Assembly: GCA_025057115.1 (NCBI GenBank)
Contig: JANWWZ010000003.1
Coordinates: forward strand, 241,025-305,024
DNA length: 64,000 nucleotides
From: Bernardetiaceae bacterium
Lineage (GTDB): Bacteria > Bacteroidota > Bacteroidia > Cytophagales > Thermoflexibacteraceae
Direction: 5' to 3'
A program made the position numbers and the translations under genes. The notes beneath the pieces were generated by a model. It was not told the DNA's origin and ran no database searches. It worked only from the letters and a program-made list of their open reading frames with translations. This document shows, piece after piece, positions 8,369-64,000 of this stretch (the stretch's first letter is position 1; every line of letters begins with the position of its first letter).

Positions 8369-8423
8369 AAGGAGAGAGCTCTGATGATTGCTCAAGTAAT
8401 AAAAAAAGTTATTAAAAAACAAT

Positions 8424-20030: not shown

Positions 20031-22568
20031 TCAAGGCACTACTATTGGCTTGGTAAGACAATGACCCTCTATTTCAAGAGTAACTAAATAAATACCTGCG
20101 GAAAGGTGCTTTATATCCACTTCGTGCAGGAGCTGGAGCGCGTTCATGGAAAGGGTTTCAGTGGTAATTTCTCTGCCCAGCAAATCAGTAATAATAATGC
20201 GCACTTTATCGGCTCGTTTAAGCAGTTTGCCGCGAATCATTATTTTTCCATCAACTGCTGGATTGGGATATAGGCGAACATCTTCACGGCTTGCTAAGTA
20301 GCCTTCTATTCCCAATGCATCGGATTGAATTTGAAGATTATCTATTGCCCAGCCCCAGCCGTGCACGGACTCATCAGCAAACAATCGGAAGCGGAATACT
20401 ACTTCGTCGCCAGGTTGGAAGGTATTCAACAGGTTAATAGTGCGGGGGCGGAACAAAGAAGGCGTTCCCACTGTGGTTGAATTGGGATTATTGGCGGAAA
20501 TGCCCCTATTAAAGGCATTGAGCCAAGCTGGATGTTCGCGGGAGTCATATCCGTCCAAAAGCCGCTGCCATGTTTTTCCACCATCTTTAGAGCCTTCTAC
20601 TATAACGTAGTCCCAAAAAGTGATCTGTCCAAATACCGAGCCAGGCTCGCCAGGTTCTACCAGTACAATTTCATCAAATCGCATGGTAGCATTTTGCTGG
20701 CGTATGCGAATAGGAAAGCGCATTTGGTAGATATAGTCGCTTTCGTTATTAATTCCTGTGCCATCTTTATAGGGATGGTCAGAGTGAATGGCTCCGTTTT
20801 CAAAGCCGCTGGGAGTTTCTATTCTAAAATCCGTTCCAATAAAATCCTCTCCTCCTCCTGTGTTAAAATTATTGGCATAGCTATCGCGCACTGGTTGAAG
20901 TCCTTCGGCGCGTACTTGATAAAATCCATTTGCAGGACTCTGTGACTGATTGCGCCGACTGCTTACATCGCGGGCAATAATGCGGTAACTCAACACAGTA
21001 CCTTCTGTAATGCGTCCTGGTGAAAAGCGCAACAAGGCAGCAAAGTTATTAGGTTGGACTTGTATCATTCCCGCACTAGCAAGGGGTTCATTGTTTAGCC
21101 TATACTCTAGGTATGCCGTATCAATCCCTAACCGATCTGTGATGTTAGCAGCAATGATGAGCTCGGTAGTATTAACCTGTAAAAAAGCAGGAGGGGTATG
21201 AGTAATTACAGGAGGCTCGTTATCTGCAGCTACGATGAAGGAATAGGTAATGCGCGGTGCTACTCCCGCAGGCCACAAAATGCGCACATTTTGGCGAATA
21301 TGTTCAGCTACTAAGTAATAGTTAATGGTGGCTTCCCTGTTAGGAGGTGGAATTTGCCCTTCATAGAGATTGCCAGACAGGCGGCGCATTTCTACGCTTT
21401 GTTGTGTAGCAAAGCGGTCTAGGGAATAAATGATGTAAAGGCGATAATCATTATAGTCGATAGTAGTATCGCTGACTAAATTTGCTCGCAGGGTATAAGG
21501 TCGGTCAGTAACATCCGTATTAGGATGAGGGGTATGTAACAAACGCGTATTGCGCCAGCCCAGTTGGTCAAAAATGGCTAAAGCAACAGGACCTGGATTG
21601 TGAATTGCTTCACCATTGCCGATAGCTGAAATCATCAGTTGGTTAGAGGTGCCGTCATAAGTGCGGTCGTCTAGATGGGAAATGCTAGAGCCTGGCTGCC
21701 ATGGAGAAGGAGCGTAAAGAGGAGCTGGCACTCCTAAGTTAGCGCGGCGCACTTGCGGACCTTGAAATACCACATCGCCACTGGTAAGCTCTCTACCCAA
21801 TGCAGTAGAATTATTGCGGAAAATGGTCGTATCAATAAGCGATTCGCCGCGAGAATTCTCTACAAATGTGTCATAGATAAATGGAAAGCCACTATCACCC
21901 CAACGACCAAGATTGCGCCCCGATTCAAATTGAAAGCTGGAAACAAACCCTAATCCATGAGCAATTTCGTGCAGTACTACGCTGGTTAAATCCCATTTGT
22001 CGCGCGGAGGATTGGCATCGGTGCCAAAATACCAATTATTGTTATTGCTGTTGAAATTGGCAACAATGTCGGGTTCTTGTCCGTTGAGGTCCACTCCTAA
22101 CAGTTTTTCAGCAAGCGCTACGGGGTACCAAACTGGAAAGCGCGGCAACAAGGGCGAGCGGAAAAAGCCATTGCTGGTAGCACTGCCCAGTACATTAGGA
22201 CGAGAATTAGGCGCCCATACCGCCCTAATGCGGATCGGAATGGGAGAAGTAAGCAAAGAAGACCATATGTCTATCGCCTTTTGAAAGGCTGCTTGCGCTT
22301 CAGGAGTAAATCCCTCGTATTGAACGATGAAACGCGCTGTTTCTGTTTCTTCGGTCCTGCCTTTGCGGCGTGCCTCCGCCCATTTCAGATATGCTTCTGG
22401 AGGAGGAATGTTTTTGCGAATATGGTTAGTAGTTGCCGGACATACTATCGGCATAAAGCCTTTTCGATACTCTATTTGCAACTGACGCCATAGAGAAGGT
22501 TGCTGCGCCTGTACAACTCCTATTAACCCAATAGCCGAGCAACTGGCTACAAAATATCTTCCTAGCAT
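20031..22568 (-). CDS. Secreted HExxH zinc metalloprotease-like protein with T9SS C-terminal sorting domain
   Basis: Start moved to MLGRYFVASCSAIGLIGVVQAQ (signal peptide). Zinc motif VLHEIAHGLGF. The C-terminus VRLYPNPAVDGKIMI...ITDLLGREI...LSAGIYLVTLE is a T9SS CTD. Confidence 0.8.
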   Translation of the reverse strand: MLGRYFVASCSAIGLIGVVQAQQPSLWRQLQIEYRKGFMPIVCPATTNHIRKNIPPPEAYLKWAEARRKGRTEETETARFIVQYEGFTPEAQAAFQKAIDIWSSLLTSPIPIRIRAVWAPNSRPNVLGSATSNGFFRSPLLPRFPVWYPVALAEKLLGVDLNGQEPDIVANFNSNNNNWYFGTDANPPRDKWDLTSVVLHEIAHGLGFVSSFQFESGRNLGRWGDSGFPFIYDTFVENSRGESLIDTTIFRNNSTALGRELTSGDVVFQGPQVRRANLGVPAPLYAPSPWQPGSSISHLDDRTYDGTSNQLMISAIGNGEAIHNPGPVALAIFDQLGWRNTRLLHTPHPNTDVTDRPYTLRANLVSDTTIDYNDYRLYIIYSLDRFATQQSVEMRRLSGNLYEGQIPPPNREATINYYLVAEHIRQNVRILWPAGVAPRITYSFIVAADNEPPVITHTPPAFLQVNTTELIIAANITDRLGIDTAYLEYRLNNEPLASAGMIQVQPNNFAALLRFSPGRITEGTVLSYRIIARDVSSRRNQSQSPANGFYQVRAEGLQPVRDSYANNFNTGGGEDFIGTDFRIETPSGFENGAIHSDHPYKDGTGINNESDYIYQMRFPIRIRQQNATMRFDEIVLVEPGEPGSVFGQITFWDYVIVEGSKDGGKTWQRLLDGYDSREHPAWLNAFNRGISANNPNSTTVGTPSLFRPRTINLLNTFQPGDEVVFRFRLFADESVHGWGWAIDNLQIQSDALGIEGYLASREDVRLYPNPAVDGKIMIRGKLLKRADKVRIIITDLLGREITTETLSMNALQLLHEVDIKHLSAGIYLVTLEIEGHCLTKPIVVP

Positions 22569-22692
22569 GGGTGGTACTAAATTAATCCAGGTGTAATATA
22601 CCAAATTTTTAGGCAATGCAATTGAGCAAAAGCCCTTGCTAGTAACAAACATTCACTTAAATTGTCAGTTGTACACGGTGAGGATAAAGTGC

Positions 22693-35276: not shown

Positions 35277-35456
35277 GAAGTAAGGCAAGGCTGAAGCTTT
35301 CATTGGTGAGTTAAAAAATGCTTTGCTTTTTTGCCAAGTAAATTTGCTTGATTCTCTCTTGCTGACGAGTTTGCAGTGAAATGACAGTAACATTTACCAG
35401 ATGCATCAAAACTGTTTTCTTTTTGTACATAAGTAGCAAACGCTGCTTTTTTGTCT

Positions 35457-35464
35457 TATATTTG
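35457..35464 (+). promoter_or_regulatory. Candidate -7 promoter box (TATATTTG)
   Basis: TAnnTTTG match inside the ORF-track 5' extension, 43 nt upstream of the TTG at 35508. Confidence 0.3.
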
Positions 35465-35507
35465 TCGGAGATACTTCTTTAGGTTTAGTGTAACACAAGG
35501 TAAGGAA

Positions 35508-37658
35508 TTGAAGCGTTTTGCCGAGTTTTTTTGTATTGCCGCATTTTTTGGACTATCAGCTAGAGCAACATTAGTAGCACAAATCAAGCCTGTTCTAGAT
35601 AGTCTTCAAAATGCATTGTCTAGGGCAAGTACTGATGAGGAGCAAATAAAAATTTGCCTGAATTTATCCACTATAGCTTGGCAAAACGCTTACAATGAAG
35701 AAGCGTTGCAGTATGCTAAAAAAGCTCTCGAAATTGCCAAAAAAATTAACAATGAAAAATTCCAAGCGGACGCCCATCGGTTACTTGGCATTGCATACTT
35801 TAACCGATTGGAGTACGAGAAAGCTCTTCTTCACTACCAACTTGCTCAAGGCATTTATGCAAGTTTGCCTCTAATCGATACGCTCAACTTAGCCAGAACA
35901 CTCAACAACATCGGTTTGCTCTATAGTTATCAAGGCTACATTTACATTAGTCAGCAGTATTTCCATCGCGCTCTTTACCTGCGCAAACTGATTAGAGATA
36001 GCATCGGCATTTCTAATTCACTTACCAACATAGGACGGCTCAAATCCAGTAGTAGGCAATACGATAGTGCGCGTTACTACTTCTGGCAAGCATATGCCCT
36101 GAGAAAAGGCGATACATATTTAGTCATCTCCTCTATGATGGATATTGCAGAGTCCTTTCGCAAAGAAGGTCAAATGGACTCGGCACTAGTTTACTACCAA
36201 CGCGCTTATGAGCTCGGTCTTGCCAATAATACAAAATACAATGCTTCTTTTGCCCTTTCTTCCATGAGTAATATTTACTACCGTCTTGGAGCATATGCTA
36301 AAGCATTGCAATACGCTATCATGTCCGACACCTTGTCGAAAGATGGGAGCTATTGGCAACGCGTTCGCTCTTTAAATGCAGTGGCACAGGCATACGTAGG
36401 CATGCGAAAATTTTCTCTAGCGAAAAAAGTATTGCAACAGGCTCTGGAGATAGGAATTCGTACTCAATCTCGCACCGAGCTAGTCAACACTTATCAAATA
36501 CAATACAAATTGGATTCCCTTACAGGAAACTATCGAAAAGCCCTTTACTGGCTTAATCAATACCATGCCCTAAAGGATAGCATTGCTTCGGCTACTTACC
36601 TTAACCAAGCCCTTGAAATGCAATACATTAAAGAAATTAGCCATAAGCAAGAAGTGGTTTTACAACTGCAAAATGAAAGGAAGTTAAAAGCCGTTCAAGA
36701 AAAAAACTATCGTTTTATCACAAGAGCAATAGGGGTTATTATTGTATTATTGCTAGCTGCAATAGCTTTTTTTGCTTACACGTGGCAACGCATTAAAACC
36801 CAAAGCAAAGAACTAGCTCAACGGCAAAAAATCATAGAAAATACCAATGAAGCGCTTACTAAAATAAACGAGGCTTACCAACAAAAAGCCACTGAACTAA
36901 CACAAACTGTCTGTTTGCTCAACCAAACCAACCAAGCTCTTTTTGCTGCCAATTGCGAAAAAGATAATTTAATGGAAATCATTGCCCAAGACCTCAAGCT
37001 ATCTGTAGAGAAAATTAGCAGCCTTGCGCAAATCGTTAAATCATCCAATGGCTTGAGCGAGCAACAACTGGAGCTTGTGCAACTAATAAACCTCTCTGCT
37101 CAAAAGAGCATTAACTTGATTTCCAATATTTTGCTGCTAAATGCCTTAGAGAGTGGACATAACCCCATCAAAGCTGAGCTCACTAACTTGCATTATTTAC
37201 TTACTGTACATGTGCAACCTTATGTACATCAATCCCAAGAAAAGCAAATTTTGTTTGAATGGCACAATGAAGTGGTAAACGAAATCCTAATCGATCCTAA
37301 ATTCTTGTTGCGTATCATTGACAACTTGCTTTCCAACGCCATTAAATTTACTCGAGCAGGTGGAAGAGTAGTCTTGCACACAACAGTAGAACAAGCCCAG
37401 CTAGTTATCCGAGTAATAGACGAAGGGCAAGGCATTTCTATCGATGAACAAAAACTGCTCTTTACTAAATTTAAGCGCCTCAGTGCCATTCCCATCGGTG
37501 CAGAATTCGGCGCGGGAATGGGGCTTGCGATCGTCAAGTATATTGTAGAGAAAATGCAAGGAAAAATAGAAGTAGAAAGCGTTAAGGGAAAAGGGAGCAC
37601 TTTTACTGTATATTTGCCTTTGCAAACCCTTCGTTATGGCGCTTATTCTTGCATATGA
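35508..37658 (+). CDS. TPR-repeat sensor histidine kinase (paralogous architecture to 8424-10643)
   Basis: A TTG start at 35508 gives MKRFAEFFCIAAFFGLSARATLVAQ, a good signal peptide. The ORF-track start at 35451 is also TTG and overlaps the -7 box. Layout is TPR region, one TM, coiled coil, HisKA-like and HATPase_c (NAIKFT, DEGQGIS, GAGMGLAIV). The start is uncertain. Confidence 0.8.
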   Translation: MKRFAEFFCIAAFFGLSARATLVAQIKPVLDSLQNALSRASTDEEQIKICLNLSTIAWQNAYNEEALQYAKKALEIAKKINNEKFQADAHRLLGIAYFNRLEYEKALLHYQLAQGIYASLPLIDTLNLARTLNNIGLLYSYQGYIYISQQYFHRALYLRKLIRDSIGISNSLTNIGRLKSSSRQYDSARYYFWQAYALRKGDTYLVISSMMDIAESFRKEGQMDSALVYYQRAYELGLANNTKYNASFALSSMSNIYYRLGAYAKALQYAIMSDTLSKDGSYWQRVRSLNAVAQAYVGMRKFSLAKKVLQQALEIGIRTQSRTELVNTYQIQYKLDSLTGNYRKALYWLNQYHALKDSIASATYLNQALEMQYIKEISHKQEVVLQLQNERKLKAVQEKNYRFITRAIGVIIVLLLAAIAFFAYTWQRIKTQSKELAQRQKIIENTNEALTKINEAYQQKATELTQTVCLLNQTNQALFAANCEKDNLMEIIAQDLKLSVEKISSLAQIVKSSNGLSEQQLELVQLINLSAQKSINLISNILLLNALESGHNPIKAELTNLHYLLTVHVQPYVHQSQEKQILFEWHNEVVNEILIDPKFLLRIIDNLLSNAIKFTRAGGRVVLHTTVEQAQLVIRVIDEGQGISIDEQKLLFTKFKRLSAIPIGAEFGAGMGLAIVKYIVEKMQGKIEVESVKGKGSTFTVYLPLQTLRYGAYSCI

Positions 37659-50230: not shown

Positions 50231-50266
50231 AAAAAAGCCCTAGTAGTACTAGGGCTAAGTTTTTTG
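50231..50266. terminator. Strong bidirectional rho-independent terminator
   Basis: AAAAAA-AGCCCTAG-TAGTA-CTAGGGCT-AAGTTTTTT. Perfect 8-bp stem (50236-50243 / 50249-50256) flanked by A- and T-runs, between convergent genes. Confidence 0.8.
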
Positions 50267-50275
50267 CTCAAAGCG

Positions 50276-50707
50276 TTACCGCTTAAAACCTAGAACTGCT
50301 GCTCCACAGTAGCTTTCTGAGTCTTTAAACGAAAACAAGATGTAGTAAATACCTGTTGAGCGGCAGCGATAGGTCCAACCAGGGTAAGATTTGCCGTTTA
50401 AGTTGTTTGTAGTAAGCTCCTGCCGCTGGTTATCCAGCAGTGTAGCCACAATGCCTTTCGCACCACCATCTTTGCCTTCAATTCTAAGCATGTAGTTGGT
50501 GTCTTTACTGAATACGCAAGTGTATTCAATGTTTTTTCGCGCACCGTTTTTGCCGTCTATCTTATAGCTTTTGACAAAAGTGTAACCTTGTTGTAGTGCC
50601 TTTAGCGCTTTTTGGCTATATACTTCGGCATCACATTGAGCGACAGCCTTAGTAGAGAAAAGCGCCAAAGATAACAGCACTACTAGTGGGGTCAGTACAG
50701 CTCGCAT
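50276..50707 (-). CDS. Small secreted protein of unknown function (4 Cys)
   Basis: Signal peptide MRAVLTPLVVLLSLALFSTKAVAQ. Last gene of the co-oriented cluster, 19 nt after the upstream gene. Confidence 0.55.
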   Translation of the reverse strand: MRAVLTPLVVLLSLALFSTKAVAQCDAEVYSQKALKALQQGYTFVKSYKIDGKNGARKNIEYTCVFSKDTNYMLRIEGKDGGAKGIVATLLDNQRQELTTNNLNGKSYPGWTYRCRSTGIYYILFSFKDSESYCGAAVLGFKR

Positions 50708-54944: not shown

Positions 54945-55319
54945 TTAGTAAGATTTAAATTCAAAGGGCACGGTTTCAACCAGTTCGGAAAATTCTTCTC
55001 CTGCTTCCTCCATGTCCTCGTCATCTTCGTGGTAATACCACACTACGCGCGAGCCCGGAATATTGTCTAACTTGGAAAGAATATCCAGTATCAACTTTGA
55101 AGAAGCAGTATTAAAATACTCCAGTTTAAAGCGGAAGATAGTTTCTGGATTAGGCGCAGCCTGATAGCGGTCGAGCCATTCCAAAATAGGCGCATAAAAT
55201 TCCGCTGCATCTTCGGGTAGGGAGCGCCCCGAGATTTCAAAAATTCCCCTTTCTTTATCTAAGATAATCTTAGGGGTATCTTCAGTTCCTTCTAAGTTGA
55301 TTACTTCCATTGTAGCCAT
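54945..55319 (-). CDS. DUF1987 / SiaC-like regulatory phosphoprotein
   Basis: 124 aa. GTEDTPKIILDKERGIFEISGRSLPEDAAEFYAPILEWL...FKLEYFNTASSKLILDIL is the DUF1987 signature. The candidate phospho-acceptor Thr71 is encoded at 55107-55109. Confidence 0.8.
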   Translation of the reverse strand: MATMEVINLEGTEDTPKIILDKERGIFEISGRSLPEDAAEFYAPILEWLDRYQAAPNPETIFRFKLEYFNTASSKLILDILSKLDNIPGSRVVWYYHEDDEDMEEAGEEFSELVETVPFEFKSY

Positions 55320-55867
55320 CAGCTCTGTGTTCTTGAAATGGTTGCTCTAAGTGAAAAAAAAGATAGTTTATCATTAATGGGCTCAAAATCATAACGCAAT
55401 TTATGACCTGATTTGCGCGCCATGTCAATAAACCCTAAGCCTGCTCCTCCTTTAGCAGAAAGTTCGCCGTGCTTGATTACTTCCTTATAGAGTTCTTTTA
55501 AACCCTCTTTGTCCAAACTGTTGATGTGTTCCAAGCGTCTGGTAATTTCTTCTACCTTTTCTTTGGGAACAGCATTGCCCGAAGTAATCACATATTCATT
55601 GTTATGCTTGCCTATCATAAAAATAGCACTGTTTTTTCCGTAGTTTTCCGTATCATAGGCTTCTGCATGCTTGCAGATGTTTTGCAAGCACTCTACCATG
55701 ACATTGAACACCTTGCGTTTGACGGCGGCTTCCTCGCCAAAGGCATCCATGTTTCGCTCAGCCATGGCCAGCACTGACTTGGTAATTTCCTGCGTAAACT
55801 CGCCCTCATACACCAAAATCAGGTTTTGCCTGAGCATAATCCTATGTAGGTCATATATGTATTTCAT
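55319..55867 (-). CDS. SiaB-like (RsbW/HATPase-type) serine/threonine protein kinase
   Basis: 182 aa. ...MVECLQNICKHAE...GGAGLGFIDMARKSG.... Its stop TGA overlaps the siaC-like ATG (ATGA at 55317-55321). Confidence 0.75.
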   Translation of the reverse strand: MKYIYDLHRIMLRQNLILVYEGEFTQEITKSVLAMAERNMDAFGEEAAVKRKVFNVMVECLQNICKHAEAYDTENYGKNSAIFMIGKHNNEYVITSGNAVPKEKVEEITRRLEHINSLDKEGLKELYKEVIKHGELSAKGGAGLGFIDMARKSGHKLRYDFEPINDKLSFFSLRATISRTQS

Positions 55868-55975: not shown

Positions 55976-58900
55976 TCAAAATTTAATGCCGATGAGCAAT
56001 ATATCGTCGGTTTGTGCATAGCCGTTGCGCCATTGTTCGAATGCGCGGTCAAAGATAGTCCGTATTTCGGTCATGGGCTTATGGTAGTGATTGGCAATAA
56101 GTTCTCGGATTTGCCGAGGGGAAAATTTTTTGTTGTCAGGTCCGCCAAACTGATCAGCAAGTCCATCGGAGGAAAGGTAAATAGAATCCCCTCTAGCAAG
56201 GCATAATTCATGGGTAGTAAAACCTTTGCGATTGCGAATTTGCCCTCCTCCGATGGGAAACTTATCTCCCTTGATCACCTTCAACTCTCCTCTAAGGACG
56301 CAATAAAGAGGACGATGCGCTCCCGCATATTGTACTTTTCCTGTATTGAGATTGATCTTACACAAGGCAATATCCATTCCATCACGGGTAGTGGCATTGA
56401 TGTCTTGTCTTAATGTGCGCGTTACTCCTTCATTGAGCAGGTCTAAAATTTGCCCCACTTCTGATACATTGCGGCTATTGACCACGTCATTAAGAATAAA
56501 GTAACCTATTAGCGAAATAAGAGCTCCTGGAACCCCGTGCCCTGTGCAATCTACCGCTGCTACATACACCTCGTTGCCTTTTTGTAAAAACCATGGAAAA
56601 TCCCCACTTACTACATCGCGTGGACGATAGTATATGAATGAATCAGGGAAAACTTTTTGGATAGTAGTAGTGTCAGGCAGGATAGCGCTTTGAATCCTTT
56701 TGGCATAGTTGATACTTTCGGTAATCTTGCGGTTGATGGAAAGAATTTCCATTTCCGCTTCTTTGTTCTCGGTAATGTCATGAGATACAATAAGCACCGA
56801 TTCAATTTCTCTATTTTCGTTCTGCTCTGGAATGGCATTGACTTGCATGATGCGCTTTCCTAAGAGAGAGGGGAAAGGCATTTCAGTTTTAATAATTTTA
56901 TTAGCCACAATGGCATCGCGGAGCAAGTGAGCCCATTGGCGAACAATTTCTTCCTCAATGCCAGTTTCTTGGATGCGTTTACCTAGCAGTTCGGCGGGTG
57001 TTTTTCCCGTGTAAGTAGTAATGACAGGATTGATGTAAAAGATGATTCCTTCAGGATTAATACGGGTGATCAAGTCGGGAGAGTTTTCCGAAAGAGATTG
57101 CATTTGTCCGCGCATGCGCGCTTCGCGTTCTGCTAAGCGGCGTTCGGTAATATCTCGGTAGTTTACTACAATTCCTTGAATAGCGGGGTCGGAAAGTAAG
57201 TTATTGCCTGTAGCTTCCAGCCAAATTGCCTCACCATTTTTGCGCAGGTATTCAAACTGTACCATTACTTTTTCTTCAGGTTCTTCTAGCAAGTCGCGGA
57301 ACATCTGGCGGGCAATGTGTACGCTATTGGGATGGACATAAATAATATCATTAATCCCTATCATTTCATCGGGCGTATAGCCCAAAATGGATTCTACCGA
57401 AGGACTGATATATCGTATCCGCCCATCTGCTTCATAAATGGTAATGACTTCGGAAGCGTTTTCTAGCAACAACTGCATGCGTTTTTGGGAGCGGTTCACC
57501 TCTTGGATTTGGTCTTCTAGTTGAGCATTGATGCGCCGCAACTCCTCCTGAGTAGCTTCCATAATAATAGCGTTCTCCCGCAAGATTTTTTCGCGTGCTT
57601 GAAGCTCTCGACTCATTTGTTGGGCTTCCGTCAGCAAGCGTAAGGTGCGCTCATTAACTCGTATGTTAAAAATAGTGCGGGCAATAATAGTGCTCACTTC
57701 TTCCACAAAATGGATATACAGGGGAGTAAATCGGTCAAAGCCTGCTAGTTCCACTACCCCGTAAACGGTTTCATTAGCAATGAGCGGCACCAGTAGAAGG
57801 CAGTCGGGTTTGCGGTCTCCTAAAATGCCAGAGGAAATGGTAACATAATGGAAAGGTATTTCAGTGCGCAAAATAGTATCTTTTTCAATGGCTGCTTGCC
57901 CTACCAGTCCTTCTCCTAGGCGGAAGGAATTTTTGATATATTTTCTTCTGCCGTAAGCGTAAGCAGCTAGTAGTTCAAGCAGAATAGAACCATCGGCTTG
58001 TTCGTTAGCCACGTAAATGGCTCCTTGAACGGCTTGGATTCTATAGGTGAGGTAAGCAATTACTTCATAGCTGACTTCTTGCAAATCATTAGAGGAACGC
58101 AAAATTTGTCCTATTTCTGCTACCCCTGAAACGATCCAGTTGCGTTCTTCGTCGCGTTGTTCAGCCCGTCGGATGTTATCGCGCATGGTGAGGAGTGCAT
58201 TGCCTAGCACGTCGTTGGCGCTAGCGGGCTCAAATTCCACATCGTATTTTCCTTCTCCTATTAGGCGAGCAAAGTGGACATTTTTGCGTTGTGTTTCTAC
58301 TAGTTCTTGCACGGCAAGAGCCATTTCCCCAATTTCATCATTGCTTTTGATAGTAATTTTTTCAGGCAATACACCTTGGGCTACCAAACTGAGGCTTGTT
58401 TTGAGAAACTGCAAGGGAGCTACCAAGTAATGGGAGAATATCAAAGAAACTGCAAACGCTACCAGTAAGATAAAAACAGCGGCAAAAAGAAATGACAACA
58501 GCAGCCTATCGAGTTCACTATTAAGCTCATCGAGATCTATTTTTACTACCAGTCCCCATTCTACGCGCGGCAAATATCGCCAAATGGCATATGTTTTTTT
58601 GTCGCGGTAGTCTTGCATGATGCCGAAGCCTGCTTCTCCTATGGCTGCTAGGTAGGTGGGGTCAGGGTTGATTTCATCTACAATAGTGGATTGAGTAAGC
58701 AAAGGAAAAGAAGAAAGGCGGGGTTGGTTGATGTAATCTAGTTTATTGCCAACAAGCTTGGTAAGGATGATTTCGCCAGTTTTGCCCAATCCTATAGTGT
58801 CATTGGTGAAATGGTAAACCTTGGCCATGTCGAACTCTGCTACTAGATGACCTATCAGTTGTTCGTCTAAGCCGAAGACGGGAATGGCTACATTGAGCAA

Positions 58901-59410
58901 GGCGCGCTTTTCCGACACTTTATTAATGGAACCGTAATAAATTTTTTTACTGGCGTAGAGTTTTATTTGGTCGTAGTCAGGAAAATTTTCACCTACTAGT
59001 AAATTATCAAGGTTTTTGTTGGTCTTGTAAACAATTAAACCGTTTTTGTTGACTAGCAAAATGTTGTTATAGCCGTAAATTTCTTGGATAGGCACCAAGT
59101 AGTCGTTGAGGCGGCGTTCTATGTTGAAATATGCACTGTCCACATTGCTGACCATATTTGCTAAGGAGAGGCTTTGTAAAACTCTGCTAGAGTTTTGTAT
59201 CATGTGCAGGTTGTGCTCCAGCTGTTCAAACATATCATTGAGCTGAGAGCTGACCACTGAGCTTTTTAAGTTGAGGGTTCGCAAGAAACTCTCTTCAAAG
59301 GCATCTTTGCCAAAGCGATAAGAAAGAAAGGTAACTGAAAAAATAACAATAGTAACTACTCCTAACAGCAATATTGATATTTTGCTTCCTATCCTAACTT
59401 CGCTGAACAT
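55976..59410 (-). CDS. Membrane sensor PP2C (SpoIIE-type) phosphatase: TM-Cache-like-TM-HAMP-GAF-coiled coil-PAS-PAS-PP2C (SiaA-like)
   Basis: 1144 aa. Two TM helices flank a periplasmic domain of about 270 aa. The HAMP region is APLQFLKTSLSLVAQG...NDEIGEMALAVQEL and the GAF region is GEGLVGQAAIE...VVELAGF. There are two PAS domains (ITIYEADGRIRYISPSVESILGY; ITRINPEGIIFYINP). The PP2C motifs are SGDFPWF, AAVDCTGHGVPGAL, SDGLADQ and TDDILLIGIKF. Confidence 0.85.
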   Translation of the reverse strand: MFSEVRIGSKISILLLGVVTIVIFSVTFLSYRFGKDAFEESFLRTLNLKSSVVSSQLNDMFEQLEHNLHMIQNSSRVLQSLSLANMVSNVDSAYFNIERRLNDYLVPIQEIYGYNNILLVNKNGLIVYKTNKNLDNLLVGENFPDYDQIKLYASKKIYYGSINKVSEKRALLNVAIPVFGLDEQLIGHLVAEFDMAKVYHFTNDTIGLGKTGEIILTKLVGNKLDYINQPRLSSFPLLTQSTIVDEINPDPTYLAAIGEAGFGIMQDYRDKKTYAIWRYLPRVEWGLVVKIDLDELNSELDRLLLSFLFAAVFILLVAFAVSLIFSHYLVAPLQFLKTSLSLVAQGVLPEKITIKSNDEIGEMALAVQELVETQRKNVHFARLIGEGKYDVEFEPASANDVLGNALLTMRDNIRRAEQRDEERNWIVSGVAEIGQILRSSNDLQEVSYEVIAYLTYRIQAVQGAIYVANEQADGSILLELLAAYAYGRRKYIKNSFRLGEGLVGQAAIEKDTILRTEIPFHYVTISSGILGDRKPDCLLLVPLIANETVYGVVELAGFDRFTPLYIHFVEEVSTIIARTIFNIRVNERTLRLLTEAQQMSRELQAREKILRENAIIMEATQEELRRINAQLEDQIQEVNRSQKRMQLLLENASEVITIYEADGRIRYISPSVESILGYTPDEMIGINDIIYVHPNSVHIARQMFRDLLEEPEEKVMVQFEYLRKNGEAIWLEATGNNLLSDPAIQGIVVNYRDITERRLAEREARMRGQMQSLSENSPDLITRINPEGIIFYINPVITTYTGKTPAELLGKRIQETGIEEEIVRQWAHLLRDAIVANKIIKTEMPFPSLLGKRIMQVNAIPEQNENREIESVLIVSHDITENKEAEMEILSINRKITESINYAKRIQSAILPDTTTIQKVFPDSFIYYRPRDVVSGDFPWFLQKGNEVYVAAVDCTGHGVPGALISLIGYFILNDVVNSRNVSEVGQILDLLNEGVTRTLRQDINATTRDGMDIALCKINLNTGKVQYAGAHRPLYCVLRGELKVIKGDKFPIGGGQIRNRKGFTTHELCLARGDSIYLSSDGLADQFGGPDNKKFSPRQIRELIANHYHKPMTEIRTIFDRAFEQWRNGYAQTDDILLIGIKF

Positions 59411-59429: not shown

Positions 59430-60266
59430 TTAGATGTGGGCAGTGCCTTTCAACTGCATTGCACTTGTTTTAAACAAAGGAACAGACAAATCTATAGTTT
59501 TCTGAAGGTTTTCTAAAAAATTATTGCTCACTTGTCGGAAAAAACCAAGCTCAAGGATACCTATTACTTGCTGATTTTCCACTACTGGCATACAAACAAG
59601 TCTAGCAGGAGAAGCATTTCCCAAGCCACTTTTTACAGGCAAATACTCTTTGGGCACTGTATGAACACACAAAAGCTTACCACTTTTGGCTACTTGTCCT
59701 ACAAAGCCTTCCCCATAAGCAAAAGGCTCAATAGCAAGAGGTTCACTAAGGGCATAGCCTGCTACAGCCTGAACAGTTTCCGATGCCTGGTTGCATAGGT
59801 AGCAAACCCCTACTACTGCTTCCGTTGCATTGCACACCTGCCGCAAAAAAGTTTCTAAGAGTGCATGGATATCATGAGTGGATGTAGAATTTTTTACCAG
59901 TGCAGTAATATTATCCGACAGTTGTTTGATGATATGTTCATCAGAATGAAAGGAAGTTTGGTGTTGTTCTGGGAGGTTGTTTTCCTTTTTTTGTACCTGC
60001 TCCACGTAAATGACATTCGTTGCCCTCAGGCGACTCATGTAAATTGCCATAACAATAACTAAAAAAAGAGCAAGGAAGAATTCGGCAGCTACATAAGTAA
60101 AAATTTTTTGCACAATGGCACTGATCTCTGCCAATTGCTGAGAGGGGCTATGTTGGGACAACAGTACATCATCGATCTGTTGAGGTACTAAATAACCAAT
60201 GTAGTATAGCAAGTAGAGCAAACCAGCTGCAAAACTTAAAACACTAATAGTTAAAAAAGCTCTCAT
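59430..60266 (-). CDS. Two-TM membrane protein with cytoplasmic GAF domain only
   Basis: TM helices at aa 4-26 and 56-78. GAF core GEGFVGQVAKSGK...CMPVVENQQVIGILELGFF. No output domain. Confidence 0.7.
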   Translation of the reverse strand: MRAFLTISVLSFAAGLLYLLYYIGYLVPQQIDDVLLSQHSPSQQLAEISAIVQKIFTYVAAEFFLALFLVIVMAIYMSRLRATNVIYVEQVQKKENNLPEQHQTSFHSDEHIIKQLSDNITALVKNSTSTHDIHALLETFLRQVCNATEAVVGVCYLCNQASETVQAVAGYALSEPLAIEPFAYGEGFVGQVAKSGKLLCVHTVPKEYLPVKSGLGNASPARLVCMPVVENQQVIGILELGFFRQVSNNFLENLQKTIDLSVPLFKTSAMQLKGTAHI

Positions 60267-60281
60267 AGGAATTGGGTAGTT

Positions 60282-60893
60282 TTAGGGCAATGCCATTTTG
60301 CAAGCACGGTCAAGTTCGGATAAAAATTCTATAATTCCATCTACTTTCAAAACCAGATCTACCTCTGTTTGAGCCAAAGCCGCACTAGGCATAGTGCTGA
60401 TGGTGCTTTCTTCAGGGTCTTGAACTATTGTCAGGCCGCCTTTTTGTTTGATGCGCATCATGCCATATGCTCCGTCTTTGTTAGCTCCAGAAAGCAAGAT
60501 TCCCACTAACTTATCGCGATACACGTAAGCAGCCGTTTCAAAGGTGTAGTCTATGCAAGGTCGTGAATTATTTTCCATCTCTTCGGTGGAAAGTGCAATG
60601 CTATTGCCTAATTCTATAGACATGTGGTAATTGGCAGGGGCAAGGTATATATACCCTCGCTTAATGGGTTCTTTGTCGCAAGGCTCTACTACGGGTTTGG
60701 AGCTTTTTACCGAAAGTGCCTCTACAAATCCATGCCGTACATGTTTAAGCCGATGCAAGCACAAAAACATAGGTAATGGGAAATCTTTAGGTAACTCTGA
60801 AAGAATTCGAGTAATCACTTGAAAACTTCCTGCAGAACCTCCCACTACTACTGCTTTGTATTTCCCGCTTACTTTGTACTTGTTAAATATCAT
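60282..60893 (-). CDS. CheB-like protein-glutamate methylesterase, catalytic domain only (no receiver domain)
   Basis: 203 aa. The catalytic-triad context is conserved (VVGGSAGS, HRLKH, LSGANKDG), and the protein starts directly at the catalytic domain. Confidence 0.8.
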   Translation of the reverse strand: MIFNKYKVSGKYKAVVVGGSAGSFQVITRILSELPKDFPLPMFLCLHRLKHVRHGFVEALSVKSSKPVVEPCDKEPIKRGYIYLAPANYHMSIELGNSIALSTEEMENNSRPCIDYTFETAAYVYRDKLVGILLSGANKDGAYGMMRIKQKGGLTIVQDPEESTISTMPSAALAQTEVDLVLKVDGIIEFLSELDRACKMALP

Positions 60894-60912
60894 GCTTGCA
60901 GAACGGCTGACT

Positions 60913-61761
60913 TCAATCCTTTATTTTTTTGTAAATTTTTTCTTCGTTATTGACGACAATAAATTTGTTAGCAATGTCGCACCAAATCAGGGACTCTTTA
61001 GAGCCAATAGCCAAGTAGCCGTATTTAAACAAACTTTCGTGCAACTTAGCAAGGACCGCATTTTGCAAATTTTGGTTGAAGTAAATCATTACATTGCGGC
61101 ACAGGACGAGGTCAAACTTGGAAAATACTGGACCTTGCACTAGGTCATGTTTGCGATAGGTCACGTTTTGCAATAAAGATTTATCAAATACAGCCTCTTG
61201 CCCTACATCGCGGAAATACTTTCGAAGATTAGGCGGAGGAGCTCCTTCTACTCCAAAAGCAGCTTGGTAATTTTTTTGATTTAGTTCCATATTCTTCTGC
61301 GCAATAGTTGCTGTTTTAGCCTTATTGATAATGGCAGTATCTATATCGGTAGCTGTAATTTTAGCCTTGTCCAAAAATCCCATTTCATACAAGAGAATTA
61401 CCATCGAAAGGACTTCCTCCCCTGAAGAACAGCCTGCATGCCAAATGCTTATCCGGTCATGGTTCATGATGATATTGGGAATAATCTGCTCCTTAAGCAC
61501 GCGCCAAAAAGTGGGATCGCGGAACATTTCAGTTACATTGACCGTGATTTCTGAAATGAACTCCTCAAAAAAGGAAGGCGTAGTATCCAACACCTGAATG
61601 AGTTTATCTACTGTCTTGAACTTGTATAATTCAATCACTCGTTTAATTCGCCTTCGAAAAGACGACATGGCATAATCTCTGAAATCGTAGCCATATTTGT
61701 CTTTGATTAGCTCTGTCAATCGCCGGATGTCAGCTATTTCTATATCCAGTTCGGTGGACAT
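60913..61761 (-). CDS. CheR-like protein-glutamate O-methyltransferase
   Basis: 282 aa. CheR N-terminal helical domain (LIKDKYGYDFRDY) plus the SAM-binding block IWHAGCSSGEEVLS. Confidence 0.85.
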   Translation of the reverse strand: MSTELDIEIADIRRLTELIKDKYGYDFRDYAMSSFRRRIKRVIELYKFKTVDKLIQVLDTTPSFFEEFISEITVNVTEMFRDPTFWRVLKEQIIPNIIMNHDRISIWHAGCSSGEEVLSMVILLYEMGFLDKAKITATDIDTAIINKAKTATIAQKNMELNQKNYQAAFGVEGAPPPNLRKYFRDVGQEAVFDKSLLQNVTYRKHDLVQGPVFSKFDLVLCRNVMIYFNQNLQNAVLAKLHESLFKYGYLAIGSKESLIWCDIANKFIVVNNEEKIYKKIKD

Positions 61762-61826: not shown

Positions 61827-62831
61827 TTACCTTGTTTGCTTGAATGCAGGTCTGGGTTTTAAGTTAAGGTGTTGAAATAAAGCTTTGTCGGCATCTATTT
61901 CAGGATTAGGAGTAGTGAGGAGCTTATCTCCGGCAAAAATGGAATTGGCTCCTGCCATAAAACACAAGGCTTGCTCTGGCTCGGTCATGTTGATTCTGCC
62001 AGCGGAGAGGCGTACCATGGCTCGGGGCATGAGAATGCGAGCTGTGGCTATCATGCGCACCATATCCCATACAGAAACTCTTGGTTGATTAGCCAGAGGA
62101 GTACCTTCTATAGGCACCAGTGCATTCACTGGCACGGATTCGGGATGTTCGGGCAAAGTAGCTAAGGTATGCAGCAGGCTAATGCGGTCTTCGTGGCTTT
62201 CTCCCATGCCAATAATCCCTCCTGAGCAAACTGAAATTTTTGCCTTTCTTACGTTTTCTATTGTCTGCAATCTATCCTGATAGGTGTGAGTGGTAACAAT
62301 ATGGTCGTAGTAACTTTGGCTAGTGTCTAAATTGTGATTGTAGGCATATAAGCCTGCCTGGCTAAGCCGCTCTGCTTGTTGGGCAGTAAGCATACCTAAC
62401 GTACAGCACACTTCCATGCCCATTGCCGTTATTGCTTTGACCATTTCTATGATTTTGTCAAAGTCGCGATTGTTGCGCACTTGACGCCAAGCAGCTCCCA
62501 TGCAAAACCGCGTGCTGCCATTGGCTTTTGCCTGCTGAGCATATGCCAGTACCGTGTCTATATCAAGCAATTTATGAGCTTGTACAGGGGTATGATAGCG
62601 CGCTGCCTGAGAACAATAGGCGCAGTCCTCTGGGCAACCTCCAGTTTTTACAGAGAGCAACGTACAAATTTGTATCTCTTGCGGGTCGTGGTAGAGCCGG
62701 TGCACGGTAGCAGCCATGTACACCAGTTCTAGCAAAGGCATGTGATAAATTTGGCCAACTTGTTCAACAGTCCAATCGTGGCGGATGATGCCCACTTGAC
62801 AGGGCAAGGTAGTAGTGTTGGGTATGTTCAT
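61827..62831 (-). CDS. bioB: Biotin synthase
   Basis: Radical-SAM motif [10 protein letters not shown] and a typical BioB length and sequence ([12 protein letters not shown]). Confidence 0.92.
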
Positions 62832-62988: not shown

Positions 62989-64000
62989 ATGCAGAAACAG
63001 TATGCCAACCGTTTTTCAGTGCGCGGCTTAACTGATTTTTCAGCCATCGTTTTTGGACTGAGTATTGTTCTTTGCTATGCTTTTACTAACAATTCGCAAA
63101 CTATTAAAGATGAAATCCTCTTTGGCTTGCTGTTGGTGATTGCATTGATTGCCTATTTAATTATCGTGTACGGGCTTATTAATCCCATGATAAAAATAGC
63201 CAACGTAATGGCAGATATCATCGATGGAGACTACCAAGCCAAGGTACCCTTTTACAATAATCGCTTATTTATCCGCTTTCACTTTTTAATTTCTCTCCTT
63301 CGGGATAACCTGCAAGCTGCTTACGCACTTGTAGAAGCAATGGCTCAAAAAGCTCAAATAGATCCCCATGCTTCGTACTTACTTTTTTTGCGGTCGCAGA
63401 GCAATCCATTGGCAGATGCTTTAAGGAGACTATACGAAAAAGATATAGAGTTTGCCGCCAGAGAAAGAGAACGCTTATGGGAAACACAAGGCGTTGCTAA
63501 GTTTGTAGAAATTCTCCGCACCAGCAACCAGAGCATAGAAGAGCTCAGCAACGCTATTATTACCAATTTAGTTAGGTATTTGCAAGCCCAGCAAGGGGCT
63601 ATTTACGTGGTGGCAACTGATGAAGCAGGAGTGGATTTTTTGCGCCTTACAGGACTTTACGCCCATGACAGAGAATTGCTCGGCACTACCTGTGCAATCG
63701 GAGAAGGACTTGTAGGACAATGTTTTGAATCACAAAAAACCATCCTTATTAATGAAATTGCAGAAACCAAATTGCTCATTCGCTCAGGGTTGGGGGAGGC
63801 TCCGCCGCGTGCTTTGCTCATTGTGCCTGCTATCATTAATAATGATGCATTTGCCGTGATTGAAATTGCTTCTTTTTCACCTTTTCAGCCTTATCAAGTA
63901 GCTTTTGTAGAACGGCTAGCAGAAAGTATCGCTGCTACTATTGCTAACTCCATTGCTGCTATGCGAAACCGCAAGCTAGTAGAAGAACTAAATACCCAAA
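62989..64000 (+). CDS. Partial (3'-truncated by window) membrane HAMP-like/GAF sensor protein
   Basis: Not in the ORF track because it runs off the window. I translated it by hand: open from ATG 62989 to 64000 (337 codons). It has two TM helices (AIVFGLSIVLCYAF; ILFGLLLVIALIAYLIIVYGLI) and the GAF core GEGLVGQCFESQK...IVPAIINNDAFAVIEIASF, paralogous to the GAF cores at 55976-60266. Confidence 0.75.
   Translation, partial: MQKQYANRFSVRGLTDFSAIVFGLSIVLCYAFTNNSQTIKDEILFGLLLVIALIAYLIIVYGLINPMIKIANVMADIIDGDYQAKVPFYNNRLFIRFHFLISLLRDNLQAAYALVEAMAQKAQIDPHASYLLFLRSQSNPLADALRRLYEKDIEFAARERERLWETQGVAKFVEILRTSNQSIEELSNAIITNLVRYLQAQQGAIYVVATDEAGVDFLRLTGLYAHDRELLGTTCAIGEGLVGQCFESQKTILINEIAETKLLIRSGLGEAPPRALLIVPAIINNDAFAVIEIASFSPFQPYQVAFVERLAESIAATIANSIAAMRNRKLVEELNTQ

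Follow-up and report, generated by a model that had tools for sequence, protein, structure and literature searches.

A 64-kb stretch of contig JANWWZ010000003.1 of a Bernardetiaceae bacterium (the window, to which all coordinates refer unless another locus is named) encodes a CheR-type methyltransferase and a CheB-type methylesterase without a receiver domain, and the genes for the two stand at the head of an operon of approximately 11.5 kb, closed by a strong terminator, that continues with genes for a small GAF protein, a SiaA-like sensor phosphatase, SiaB- and SiaC-family proteins and an ABC exporter (Table 1). We propose that CheR and CheB form a dedicated covalent-modification module, which would act on a coiled coil of the sensor rather than on a methyl-accepting chemotaxis protein (MCP) and would thereby tune a partner switch of the SiaABC type, and we put the probability of this reading at roughly 0.55. 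Methylation-based adaptation thus probably acts here on another kind of sensor than a chemoreceptor. The gene content of the operon, the catalytic residues of the enzymes, the synteny, and the conservation and specificity of a sensor coil with Glu pairs at heptad spacing (the EE-heptad coil) are directly supported by the comparisons below.

CheR and receiver-less CheB retain their catalytic motifs

An earlier reading of the same DNA, made from the letters alone (the sequence-only reading), had placed the two open reading frames (ORFs) where we find them and had described a complete CheR beside a CheB reduced to its catalytic domain, with the Ser/His/Asp context in place. Both descriptions hold. 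CheR matched the Pfam families CheR_N (PF03705, E=3.4e-10) and CheR, the S-adenosylmethionine domain (PF01739, E=5.5e-42), and aligned over its full length with the solved CheR structures in PDB, best with that of Bacillus subtilis (5FTW, E=2.4e-28) and also with 1AF7 (E=1.7e-17). The motifs TVNVTEMFRDP, HAGCSSGEE, ATDID and CRNVMIYF are kept across 80 orthologs, as is the basic stretch SSFRRRIKR in the positive patch of the N-terminal domain. We take the roles of the motif residues, namely the Arg of FRD/E, the GxSxGEE loop, TDID and the Tyr of CRNVxIYF, to be those of Salmonella CheR.

CheB yielded a single Pfam domain (PF01339, residues 15-190 of 203, E=1.7e-49) and no match to a receiver domain (REC), for which there is no space because the catalytic domain starts at residue 15. 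Alignment with the catalytic domain of Thermotoga maritima CheB (3SFT, E=7.5e-29) placed GGS20AGS, LH47R and GANKD140G at the Ser, His and Asp positions, and Ser20, His47 and Asp140 are invariant in 13 CheB relatives, so that the catalytic residues, which the sequence-only reading had left to a proper alignment, are all present. The NCBIfam models for CheB scored 123 bits against cut-offs of 293-342. The closest relatives (84-86% identity) are from Cytophagales/Bernardetiaceae metagenome-assembled genomes and Rhodoflexus caldus, and across Cytophagales the protein is about 70% identical. From these features, the predicted activities are those of a protein-glutamate methyltransferase for CheR and of a methylesterase/deamidase for CheB.

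A CheB without receiver is not unusual in itself, as stand-alone CheB proteins of 190-200 amino acids (aa) form a very large class when counted as 50%-identity representatives; the same search also returned CheR-CheB fusions, CheB-REC proteins, CheB-REC-histidine kinase proteins and tandem CheB proteins, and receiver-less CheB is also found in F3 chemotaxis systems (PMC9239204). Since the receiver is absent, any feedback would have to come through the conformation of the substrate or through the small GAF protein, and not from a kinase.

The pair precedes a SiaABC-type partner switch

In the sensor of 1144 aa, Pfam identified a GAF domain, two PAS domains and a SpoIIE/PP2C domain, together with dCache_1 and HAMP matches that both lie just below their cut-offs. 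The phosphatase part (aa 883-1144) is closest in PDB to SiaA of Pseudomonas aeruginosa (6K4E, E=6.5e-34), and the score of 198 bits against the NCBIfam SiaA model NF038263 stays below the equivalog cut-off of 700 because the match is limited to the C-terminal part of the sensor. The next two genes encode a SiaB-family kinase (DUF6272 match; NF038262, 187 bits, cut-off 85; 6KKO chain A, E=2.4e-18) and a SiaC-family DUF1987 phosphoprotein (PF09345, 137.6 bits), whose N70-T71-A72 aligns with the N67-T68-S69 phospho-site motif of P. aeruginosa SiaC, T68 being the phosphorylated residue there (6K4F). With a SiaB kinase, a SiaC phosphoprotein and a SiaA-like PP2C phosphatase encoded side by side, the Ser/Thr phospho-switch foreseen as the output by the sequence-only reading is a SiaABC-type partner switch. 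The gene list of that reading was correct as far as it went, but it ended at the sensor and overlooked SiaB, SiaC, the ABC exporter, the lipoprotein and the secreted protein.

SiaD is missing, as no GGDEF protein is encoded in the operon, and the ABC exporter, the lipoprotein and the secreted protein come instead. Because of the absence of this cyclase, the partner of SiaC is most plausibly the co-transcribed ABC exporter, which makes the exporter the candidate output of the switch. It combines ABC_tran and ABC2_membrane domains with a weak TerB match and carries an N-terminal cytoplasmic extension of about 250 aa; Pfam and NCBIfam assigned no family to this extension, to the lipoprotein or to the secreted protein.

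The operon is conserved in Cytophagales

A scan of one genome per GTDB species returned 535 genomes with a CheB of the type bearing CLHRLKH around the catalytic His. Synteny was counted in the best 80 of these 535 loci, for genes in order and on the same strand, with the loci offering sufficient flank as denominators. CheR lies directly upstream of cheB in 79/79 and the small GAF protein follows cheB in 77/78, its gene often overlapping the cheB stop; further down the row come the SiaA-like sensor (68/73), SiaB (66/72), SiaC (64/71), the ABC exporter (62/66), the lipoprotein (52/58) and the secreted protein (42/58). The syntenic loci cover Bernardetiaceae, Thermoflexibacteraceae, Flammeovirgaceae, Marivirga, Cyclobacteriaceae, Roseivirgaceae, Ohtaekwangia, Chryseotalea and others. 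The association with GAF/PP2C genes that the sequence-only reading had suggested looking for in other Bacteroidota is therefore tight and widespread, and this synteny supports the view that the pair is no stray fragment or leftover of a chemotaxis operon.

We take the unit to run from cheR through the gene of the secreted protein because this is the row conserved across Cytophagales loci, bioB being in the row in only 6/75. Judged by this comparison, bioB is a chance neighbour in this lineage, and it was dismissed as a member of the operon. The bioB-cheR gap of 65 nt indeed lacks an exact TAnnTTTG box, the nearest match being TAATCTTTG, but read-through from the bioB promoter, which had been considered on that ground, is unlikely to matter in view of the rare adjacency.

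Variants of the arrangement include a fused CheR-CheB ORF of 492 aa (locus L013, 9110-10588), a tandem SiaB fusion of 383 aa with two DUF6272 domains (L090, 10398-11549) and duplicated SiaC genes (L084, 11705-12751; L016, 8774-9620).

Related pairs adjoin GAF sensors in other lineages

The gene context of CheB proteins 46-53% identical to that of the window could be read in five loci (L084, L087, L089, L090 and L091), several other context look-ups falling on contigs too short to inform. In L084 the order is a transmembrane (TM)-HAMP-GAF-coil-PAS-PAS protein, CheR, CheB, a GAF protein of 159 aa, a GAF-coil-PAS-PAS-PP2C protein and two SiaC proteins; in L087 CheB is followed by SiaB and SiaC, and in L091 CheR and CheB precede a 4HB_MCP-HAMP-GAF-HisKA-HATPase-REC protein. 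L090 encodes a canonical CheR, CheD and REC-CheB and then a second CheR, a CheB of 197 aa, a GAF protein, a PP2C sensor, a double SiaB, SiaC and an ABC protein that shares 50% identity with that of the window. In L089, CheR and CheB are followed by homologs of the lipoprotein (37%) and of the secreted protein (28%) and by a SprB-like giant adhesin, and a complete che cluster (globin-PAS-MCP, CheW, CheY, REC-CheB, CheA, CheC and CheR) lies divergently beside them. The che sets of L089 and L090 thus own a CheR and a REC-CheB, which are only 27-32% identical to the stand-alone pair, so that the receiver-less pair is an extra and separate one.

The placement of the lipoprotein and secreted-protein homologs directly after cheB and ahead of a SprB-like gliding adhesin (L089, 10712-20588) hints at a cell-surface or gliding output.

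Scanning metagenomes with an alignment of the distant stand-alone CheB proteins added 80 loci. A REC domain on the CheB ORF was found in 0/80, CheR lies directly upstream of CheB in 58/59 loci with room for it, and a large GAF sensor stands in the same gene row in 15/17 loci whose flanks reach 4.5 kb or more on each side, to which the gene-row listing adds L145. This sensor is usually a HAMP-GAF-HisKA-HATPase-REC hybrid kinase of 1100-1400 aa, and the set of PP2C, SiaB, SiaC and ABC proteins occurs twice. Among cultured species, Leptospira koniambonensis has CheR, CheB and a 4HB_MCP-GAF-histidine kinase-REC protein, and Clostridium beijerinckii a CHASE3-HAMP-GAF-histidine kinase-REC protein, CheR, CheB, REC-GGDEF and HD. 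In the latter, an 85-aa ORF with an MCPsignal match, maybe a gene fragment, lies two genes past the CheR-CheB-REC-GGDEF row (L173, 9841-10098). The small GAF protein is confined to clusters of the PP2C type and does not occur in those of the histidine-kinase type. Judged by gene content and order, the window operon is the phosphatase and partner-switch version of a broader module of CheR, receiver-less CheB and GAF sensor.

The post-GAF coil is a candidate methyl acceptor

In the sensor, the linker between the GAF domain and the first PAS domain (aa 587-652) was predicted by single-sequence AlphaFold2 to be one helix of 66 residues with a predicted local distance difference test score (pLDDT) of 64-85; the model covered aa 421-760 with a mean pLDDT of 43.8, so that we rely on the long helix of the modelled region but not on its GAF and PAS parts. 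The ortholog alignment gave the consensus LL.ESQ.MS.ELQeqQEvLRQNAEEM[E/Q]ATQEEL.RtN..LEdQI.EV., with Leu, Met or Val at seven-position spacing (603, 610, 617, 624, 631, 638) and Glu pairs immediately before them. In the nine alignments of the operon proteins, the motif [EQ][EQ]xx[ASTG][ASTG] is kept in at least 50% of orthologs at one site only, which is aa 615 of the sensor (EEMxAT, 91% of 66 sequences). Moreover, Glu and Gln switch in the coil, with E31/Q29 in column 618 and E64/Q2 in column 623. Exchange of this sort is a familiar feature of MCP methylation sites.

The sequence-only reading had found no convincing canonical methylation consensus. This is correct for the 10-residue form, but the shorter EExxA[ST] does exist in 91% of sensor orthologs, and the site escaped that reading because the window sensor has Ile-Ile where these orthologs have EE-x-x-A-T. 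Two acceptors had been proposed there, the GAF-only protein and the helical linkers of the PP2C sensor, and the comparative data favour the latter.

A similar helix occurs in TM-GAF-coil sensors of a second family, some of which have PAS domains but none an output domain; 15 further loci encode such a sensor directly upstream of cheR, and L084 has one as well. Their helix consists of four consecutive xEEMxxx heptads, TE[EQ]MRAQEEEMRQNMEE[LM]xATQEEM, with either Glu or Gln as second residue of the first pair. The member of this family in the window lineage, a protein of 423 aa whose whole gene is seen in L001 (5410-6681, minus strand), has the coil TEQMRAQEELMRQTIEQAFQTQAELEQK with EQ/EE/EQ heptads just past the end of the window. 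Sensors of the kinase type carry one to three copies of LQxQQEEL[KR]xxNEELEEQ after the GAF domain. Counted over both locus sets, the pattern EE[LM]x4EE[LM] is present in 35/35 GAF sensors from metagenomes and 72/88 from Cytophagales, in 5/72 other signalling ORFs and in 0/420 other ORFs of at least 300 aa. A search with the coil profile in a collection of 5.8 billion proteins returned 39 fragments, all of them short (29-88 aa) and lacking domain context; two short metagenomic peptides that are mostly EE-heptad coil (P0300, P0309) carry the automatic Joint Genome Institute annotation 'methyl-accepting chemotaxis protein'. These comparisons make the sensor coil a candidate methyl acceptor.

Several observations weigh against this proposal. 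The window sensor has Ile-Ile at 615/616 (AIIMEAT) and its nearest relatives have Ile-Ile or Val-Ile, so that the EE pair is lost although CheR and CheB stay highly conserved; QEEL 621-624 and single conserved Glu residues at 595, 602 and 637 are what the window sensor retains. The 10-residue MCP consensus [ASTG][ASTG]xx[EQ][EQ]xx[ASTG][ASTG] is conserved nowhere in the nine operon proteins, and the coil profile returned only chance-level coiled-coil matches in PDB, with an MCP (2CH7) at E=4.2, so that no similarity to MCP methylation helices was detected. The EE motif is low in information, exchange of Glu and Gln is common in any acidic helix, and the coil may be no more than a common trait of this family of GAF sensors. 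Five Cytophagales loci (L007 of Thermoflexibacter ruber, L008, L009, L020 and L057) keep cheR, cheB and the 2TM-GAF gene alone, with neither the coil-bearing sensor nor the remaining cluster genes within 10 kb, and in L089 the pair precedes the lipoprotein, secreted-protein and SprB-like adhesin genes with no GAF sensor there.

Other possible substrates for the pair

As cheR, cheB and the GAF gene are retained alone between unrelated genes in these five loci, the trio is the minimal block, and the small 2TM-GAF protein might itself be the substrate or main partner, either modified by CheR and CheB or controlling them, and might then regulate the PP2C sensor by contacts between the GAF domains. 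It is the most faithful neighbour of the pair and the sole gene to stay with it in the reduced loci, and a GAF-only protein also follows cheB in the distant clusters of the PP2C type (L084, L090, L151 and L155). However, with hydrophobic segments at 1-27 and 50-83, a poorly conserved acidic linker and an end directly after the GAF domain, it has no coiled coil, and no other protein of the operon is so poorly conserved (mean top-residue frequency 0.41, about 30% identity). A canonical methylation site in this protein was dismissed, since the linker cannot be aligned and shows neither a conserved motif nor a conserved Glu/Gln pair; the conserved Glu and Gln residues are E186, Q191 and E239 only, and these belong to GAF-fold motifs that the GAF domain of the sensor also has. 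Moreover, histidine-kinase-type clusters have CheR and CheB without this protein. We therefore regard it as an unlikely substrate, and suggest that it is a partner or regulator of the sensor GAF domain or of the enzymes rather than the acceptor.

If, on the other hand, the pair acted on ordinary MCPs with genes in other parts of the genome, its place in the operon would reflect co-regulation only. In the source genome the absence of MCPs covers the 64-kb window alone, on a contig of at least 381 kb, chemoreceptors exist in some Bacteroidota (PMC7390727), and receiver-less CheB does act on MCPs in the F3-class systems of Campylobacterota (PMC9239204). Against this stand the surroundings of the pair. 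In tblastn, E. coli CheW, CheY and the signalling domain of Tsr as queries gave nothing below E=1 against the window, and the test works, since the same queries recovered the MCP and CheW of L089 at about 1e-17. No MCP, CheA, CheW or receiver domain was found within the window, in agreement with the sequence-only reading, which had also listed CheY as missing; the window's HATPase_c proteins, two in number, proved to be TPR-HisKA kinases and not CheA (8424-10643, minus strand, and 35451-37658, plus strand). The 80 Cytophagales genome loci hold no MCP or CheW gene within 10 kb of the pair, and neither do the 80 metagenome loci within 8 kb. A canonical MCP-CheW-CheA-CheY gene set is thus not encoded beside this cheR/cheB pair in any of the three data sets. 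Furthermore, the gene order is kept across families and phyla consistently with non-MCP sensors, canonical che clusters, where present, own their distantly related CheR and REC-CheB, and the xWxxF pentapeptide tether ends none of the cluster proteins, which makes service to distant MCPs very improbable.

We hold it to be just as improbable that a component of the switch is the acceptor, be it SiaC with its acidic C-terminal helix EDDEDMEEAGEEF, SiaB or the N-terminal extension of the ABC exporter: siaB and siaC directly follow cheB in L087, positions 104 (E59/Q6) and 108 (E50/Q12) of SiaC vary between Glu and Gln in an EE-AG-EE context, and Salmonella CheR methylates PhoP, a non-receptor regulator, at EE/ED pairs (PMC8546571), but histidine-kinase-type clusters and loci with the trio only have CheR and CheB without SiaB, SiaC and ABC proteins, and a conserved EExxA[ST] is absent from all three.

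Proposed mechanism and implications

For the sensor coil as substrate we infer a sequence of events, each step of which, including the direction of the effect, the target of SiaC and the role of the small GAF protein, is put forward conditionally. CheR would methylate Glu residues on the acidic post-GAF coil of the adjacent sensors, that is of the SiaA-like phosphatase and in this lineage probably also of the divergently encoded 423-aa GAF-coil protein, and CheB would demethylate them and possibly deamidate Gln. A substrate of CheR other than an MCP has its precedent in PhoP. Neutralisation of charge would then shift the packing of helices in the sensor dimer or dimers, as in chemoreceptors, and the altered packing would reset the coupling of the periplasmic dCache and of the HAMP, GAF and PAS inputs to the PP2C domain. 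Such coupling through the coil agrees with the control of PPM phosphatases by linker helices that has been described for RsbU (PMC12143880). The balance of PP2C and SiaB would set the phosphorylation of SiaC at Thr71, and unphosphorylated SiaC would bind and switch its partner, most plausibly the N-terminal extension of the ABC exporter; in P. aeruginosa, SiaC binds the helical stalk of SiaD (6K4F). The small GAF protein may be a docking or regulatory partner of the sensor GAF domain.

Reversible glutamate methylation is textbook sensory adaptation and is regarded as a trait of CheA-coupled chemoreceptors. If the coil helices are methylated, adaptation or memory by methylation would reach two-component and Ser/Thr partner-switch signalling. 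More tentatively, and short of an even chance in our estimate, HAMP-GAF-coil sensors may be a widespread, cross-phylum class of methyl-accepting proteins other than chemoreceptors, whose EE-heptad helix after the GAF domain would be methylated by a dedicated CheR and receiver-less CheB. On that view histidine-kinase sensors (Leptospira, Clostridium and many uncultured lineages) and partner-switch phosphatase sensors (Cytophagales) would gain a chemotaxis-like adaptation without MCP, CheA or CheW, and the version of gliding Cytophagales would gate an ABC exporter and surface module linked to SprB-type adhesins. The question is testable, as predicted sites, enzymes and cultured hosts (Marivirga, Flexithrix, Thermoflexibacter, Leptospira and Clostridium beijerinckii) are at hand, and an answer would offer a first functional handle on a cyclase-less SiaABC-type switch in Bacteroidota.

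Layout of the locus

The ORF listing gives an unbroken row of genes on the minus strand, from bioB through the gene of the secreted protein, and the locus and gene calls are identical in two independent public assemblies. From cheR to the last gene the gaps are 19, 15, 19, 108, -1, 88, 50 and 19 nt, the negative value being the overlap of the siaC start with the siaB stop by 1 nt. The terminator-like hairpin, with its GC-rich stem, lies 20 nt past the last gene; the remaining terminator-like and promoter-like matches in the operon region are at chance level.

Table 1. Coordinates of the operon genes, candidate sites and flanking features in the 64-kb window.
Feature	Position	Strand	Basis
bioB	61827-62831	-	Upstream of the cheR-like gene
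cheR-like, predicted protein-glutamate O-methyltransferase, 282 aa; first gene of the unit	60913..61761	-	Pfam CheR_N and CheR; 5FTW
cheB-like, predicted methylesterase/deamidase, catalytic domain only, 203 aa	60282..60893	-	PF01339 only; triad against 3SFT
CheB triad codon, Ser20	60834-60836	-	3SFT alignment
CheB triad codon, His47	60753-60755	-	3SFT alignment
CheB triad codon, Asp140	60474-60476	-	3SFT alignment
Small membrane-anchored GAF-only protein, 278 aa, 2 TM	59430..60266	-	Hydrophobic segments and GAF domain
SiaA-like sensor phosphatase, 1144 aa, TM-dCache-TM-HAMP-GAF-coiled coil-PAS-PAS-PP2C	55976..59410	-	Pfam, NCBIfam, 6K4E
Candidate methyl-accepting helix, sensor aa 594-640, TEAQQMSRELQAREKILRENAIIMEATQEELRRINAQLEDQIQEV	57491..57631	-	Post-GAF coiled coil; ortholog alignment
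SiaB-family Ser/Thr protein kinase (DUF6272), 182 aa, or 172 aa with start 55837	55319..55867	-	NF038262, 6KKO
SiaC-family phosphoprotein (DUF1987), 124 aa	54945..55319	-	PF09345; 6K4F alignment
Predicted SiaC phospho-site Thr71 in FNTAS	55107-55109	-	6K4F alignment
ABCG-like ABC exporter, 1033 aa	51755..54856	-	ABC_tran and ABC2_membrane
Predicted lipoprotein, 325 aa	50727..51704	-	Signal peptide and Cys
Predicted secreted Cys-containing protein, 143 aa; last gene of the unit	50276..50707	-	Gene order, sequence features
Bidirectional intrinsic-terminator-like hairpin	50236..50256	.	9 bp stem, 5 GC, T run on both strands
Second TM-GAF-coiled-coil sensor, 337 of 423 codons (5' part)	62989..64000	+	Divergent from bioB; window end cuts the gene

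Elsewhere in the window, a protein of 873 aa that bears a C-terminal sorting domain for type IX secretion (20031-22652, minus strand) fits a gliding Bacteroidota host. A bacterial alpha-2-macroglobulin of 1861 aa (MG2, bMG3/5/6/10, bait region and TED domain) is encoded at 2957-8542 (minus strand); owing to a TTG start farther upstream, its ORF and the end of the next one overlap by about 120 nt.

Comparison with known systems

Searches of the open-access literature and bioRxiv returned no work that links CheR/CheB to SiaABC, to sensors of the PP2C or GAF kind, or to GAF hybrid kinases. With the chemotaxis CheR and CheB (E. coli/Salmonella; 5FTW; 3SFT) the window pair shares enzyme folds and motifs, here in an adjacent cheR-cheB block, and the proposed sites are likewise Glu/Gln pairs seven apart on an acidic helix, with EExxA[ST] in most orthologs. 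In contrast to chemotaxis, there is no MCP, CheA, CheW or CheY nearby, no phospho-feedback from a kinase to a CheB receiver and no pentapeptide tether, and the proposed substrate, a single parallel coiled coil that links GAF to PAS in a sensor with PP2C output, is not a four-helix-bundle hairpin.

The downstream genes resemble SiaABCD of P. aeruginosa (6K4E, 6KKO, 6K4F; PMC8457831) in the HAMP/PP2C sensor, the SiaB kinase, the DUF1987 protein with N-T-[SA] and the gene order. However, SiaD is replaced here by the ABC exporter, the lipoprotein and the secreted protein, the sensor is much larger (dCache, GAF, coil and two PAS domains), and genes for CheR, CheB and a GAF-only protein, which P. 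aeruginosa lacks, stand ahead of the row.

Wsp (WspA-F/WspR) and other alternative cellular function systems likewise apply CheR/CheB-type adaptation to a non-flagellar pathway, but those systems keep the MCP, CheW, CheA and REC-CheB, none of which is found here. In the F3-class systems of Campylobacterota, CheB is also reduced to its catalytic domain, although it works within an MCP-CheV-CheA-CheW system (PMC9239204). CheR of Salmonella acts on Glu/Asp pairs of a non-chemoreceptor, PhoP, yet it is a chemotaxis CheR that moonlights on a response regulator and not part of a dedicated pair whose genes lie with that of the target (PMC8546571). The CheR/CheB pairs with HAMP-GAF hybrid kinases (Leptospira koniambonensis, Clostridium beijerinckii and metagenomes) share the CheB clade (40-50% identity), the cheR-cheB block and the EE-heptad coil, whereas their output is HisKA-HATPase-REC and not PP2C with SiaB/SiaC, and they lack the small GAF protein and the ABC module. 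In conclusion, the component families of the window operon are all known, and what is new, judged by the papers searched, is the grafting of chemotaxis-type adaptation enzymes onto a partner-switch phosphatase pathway.

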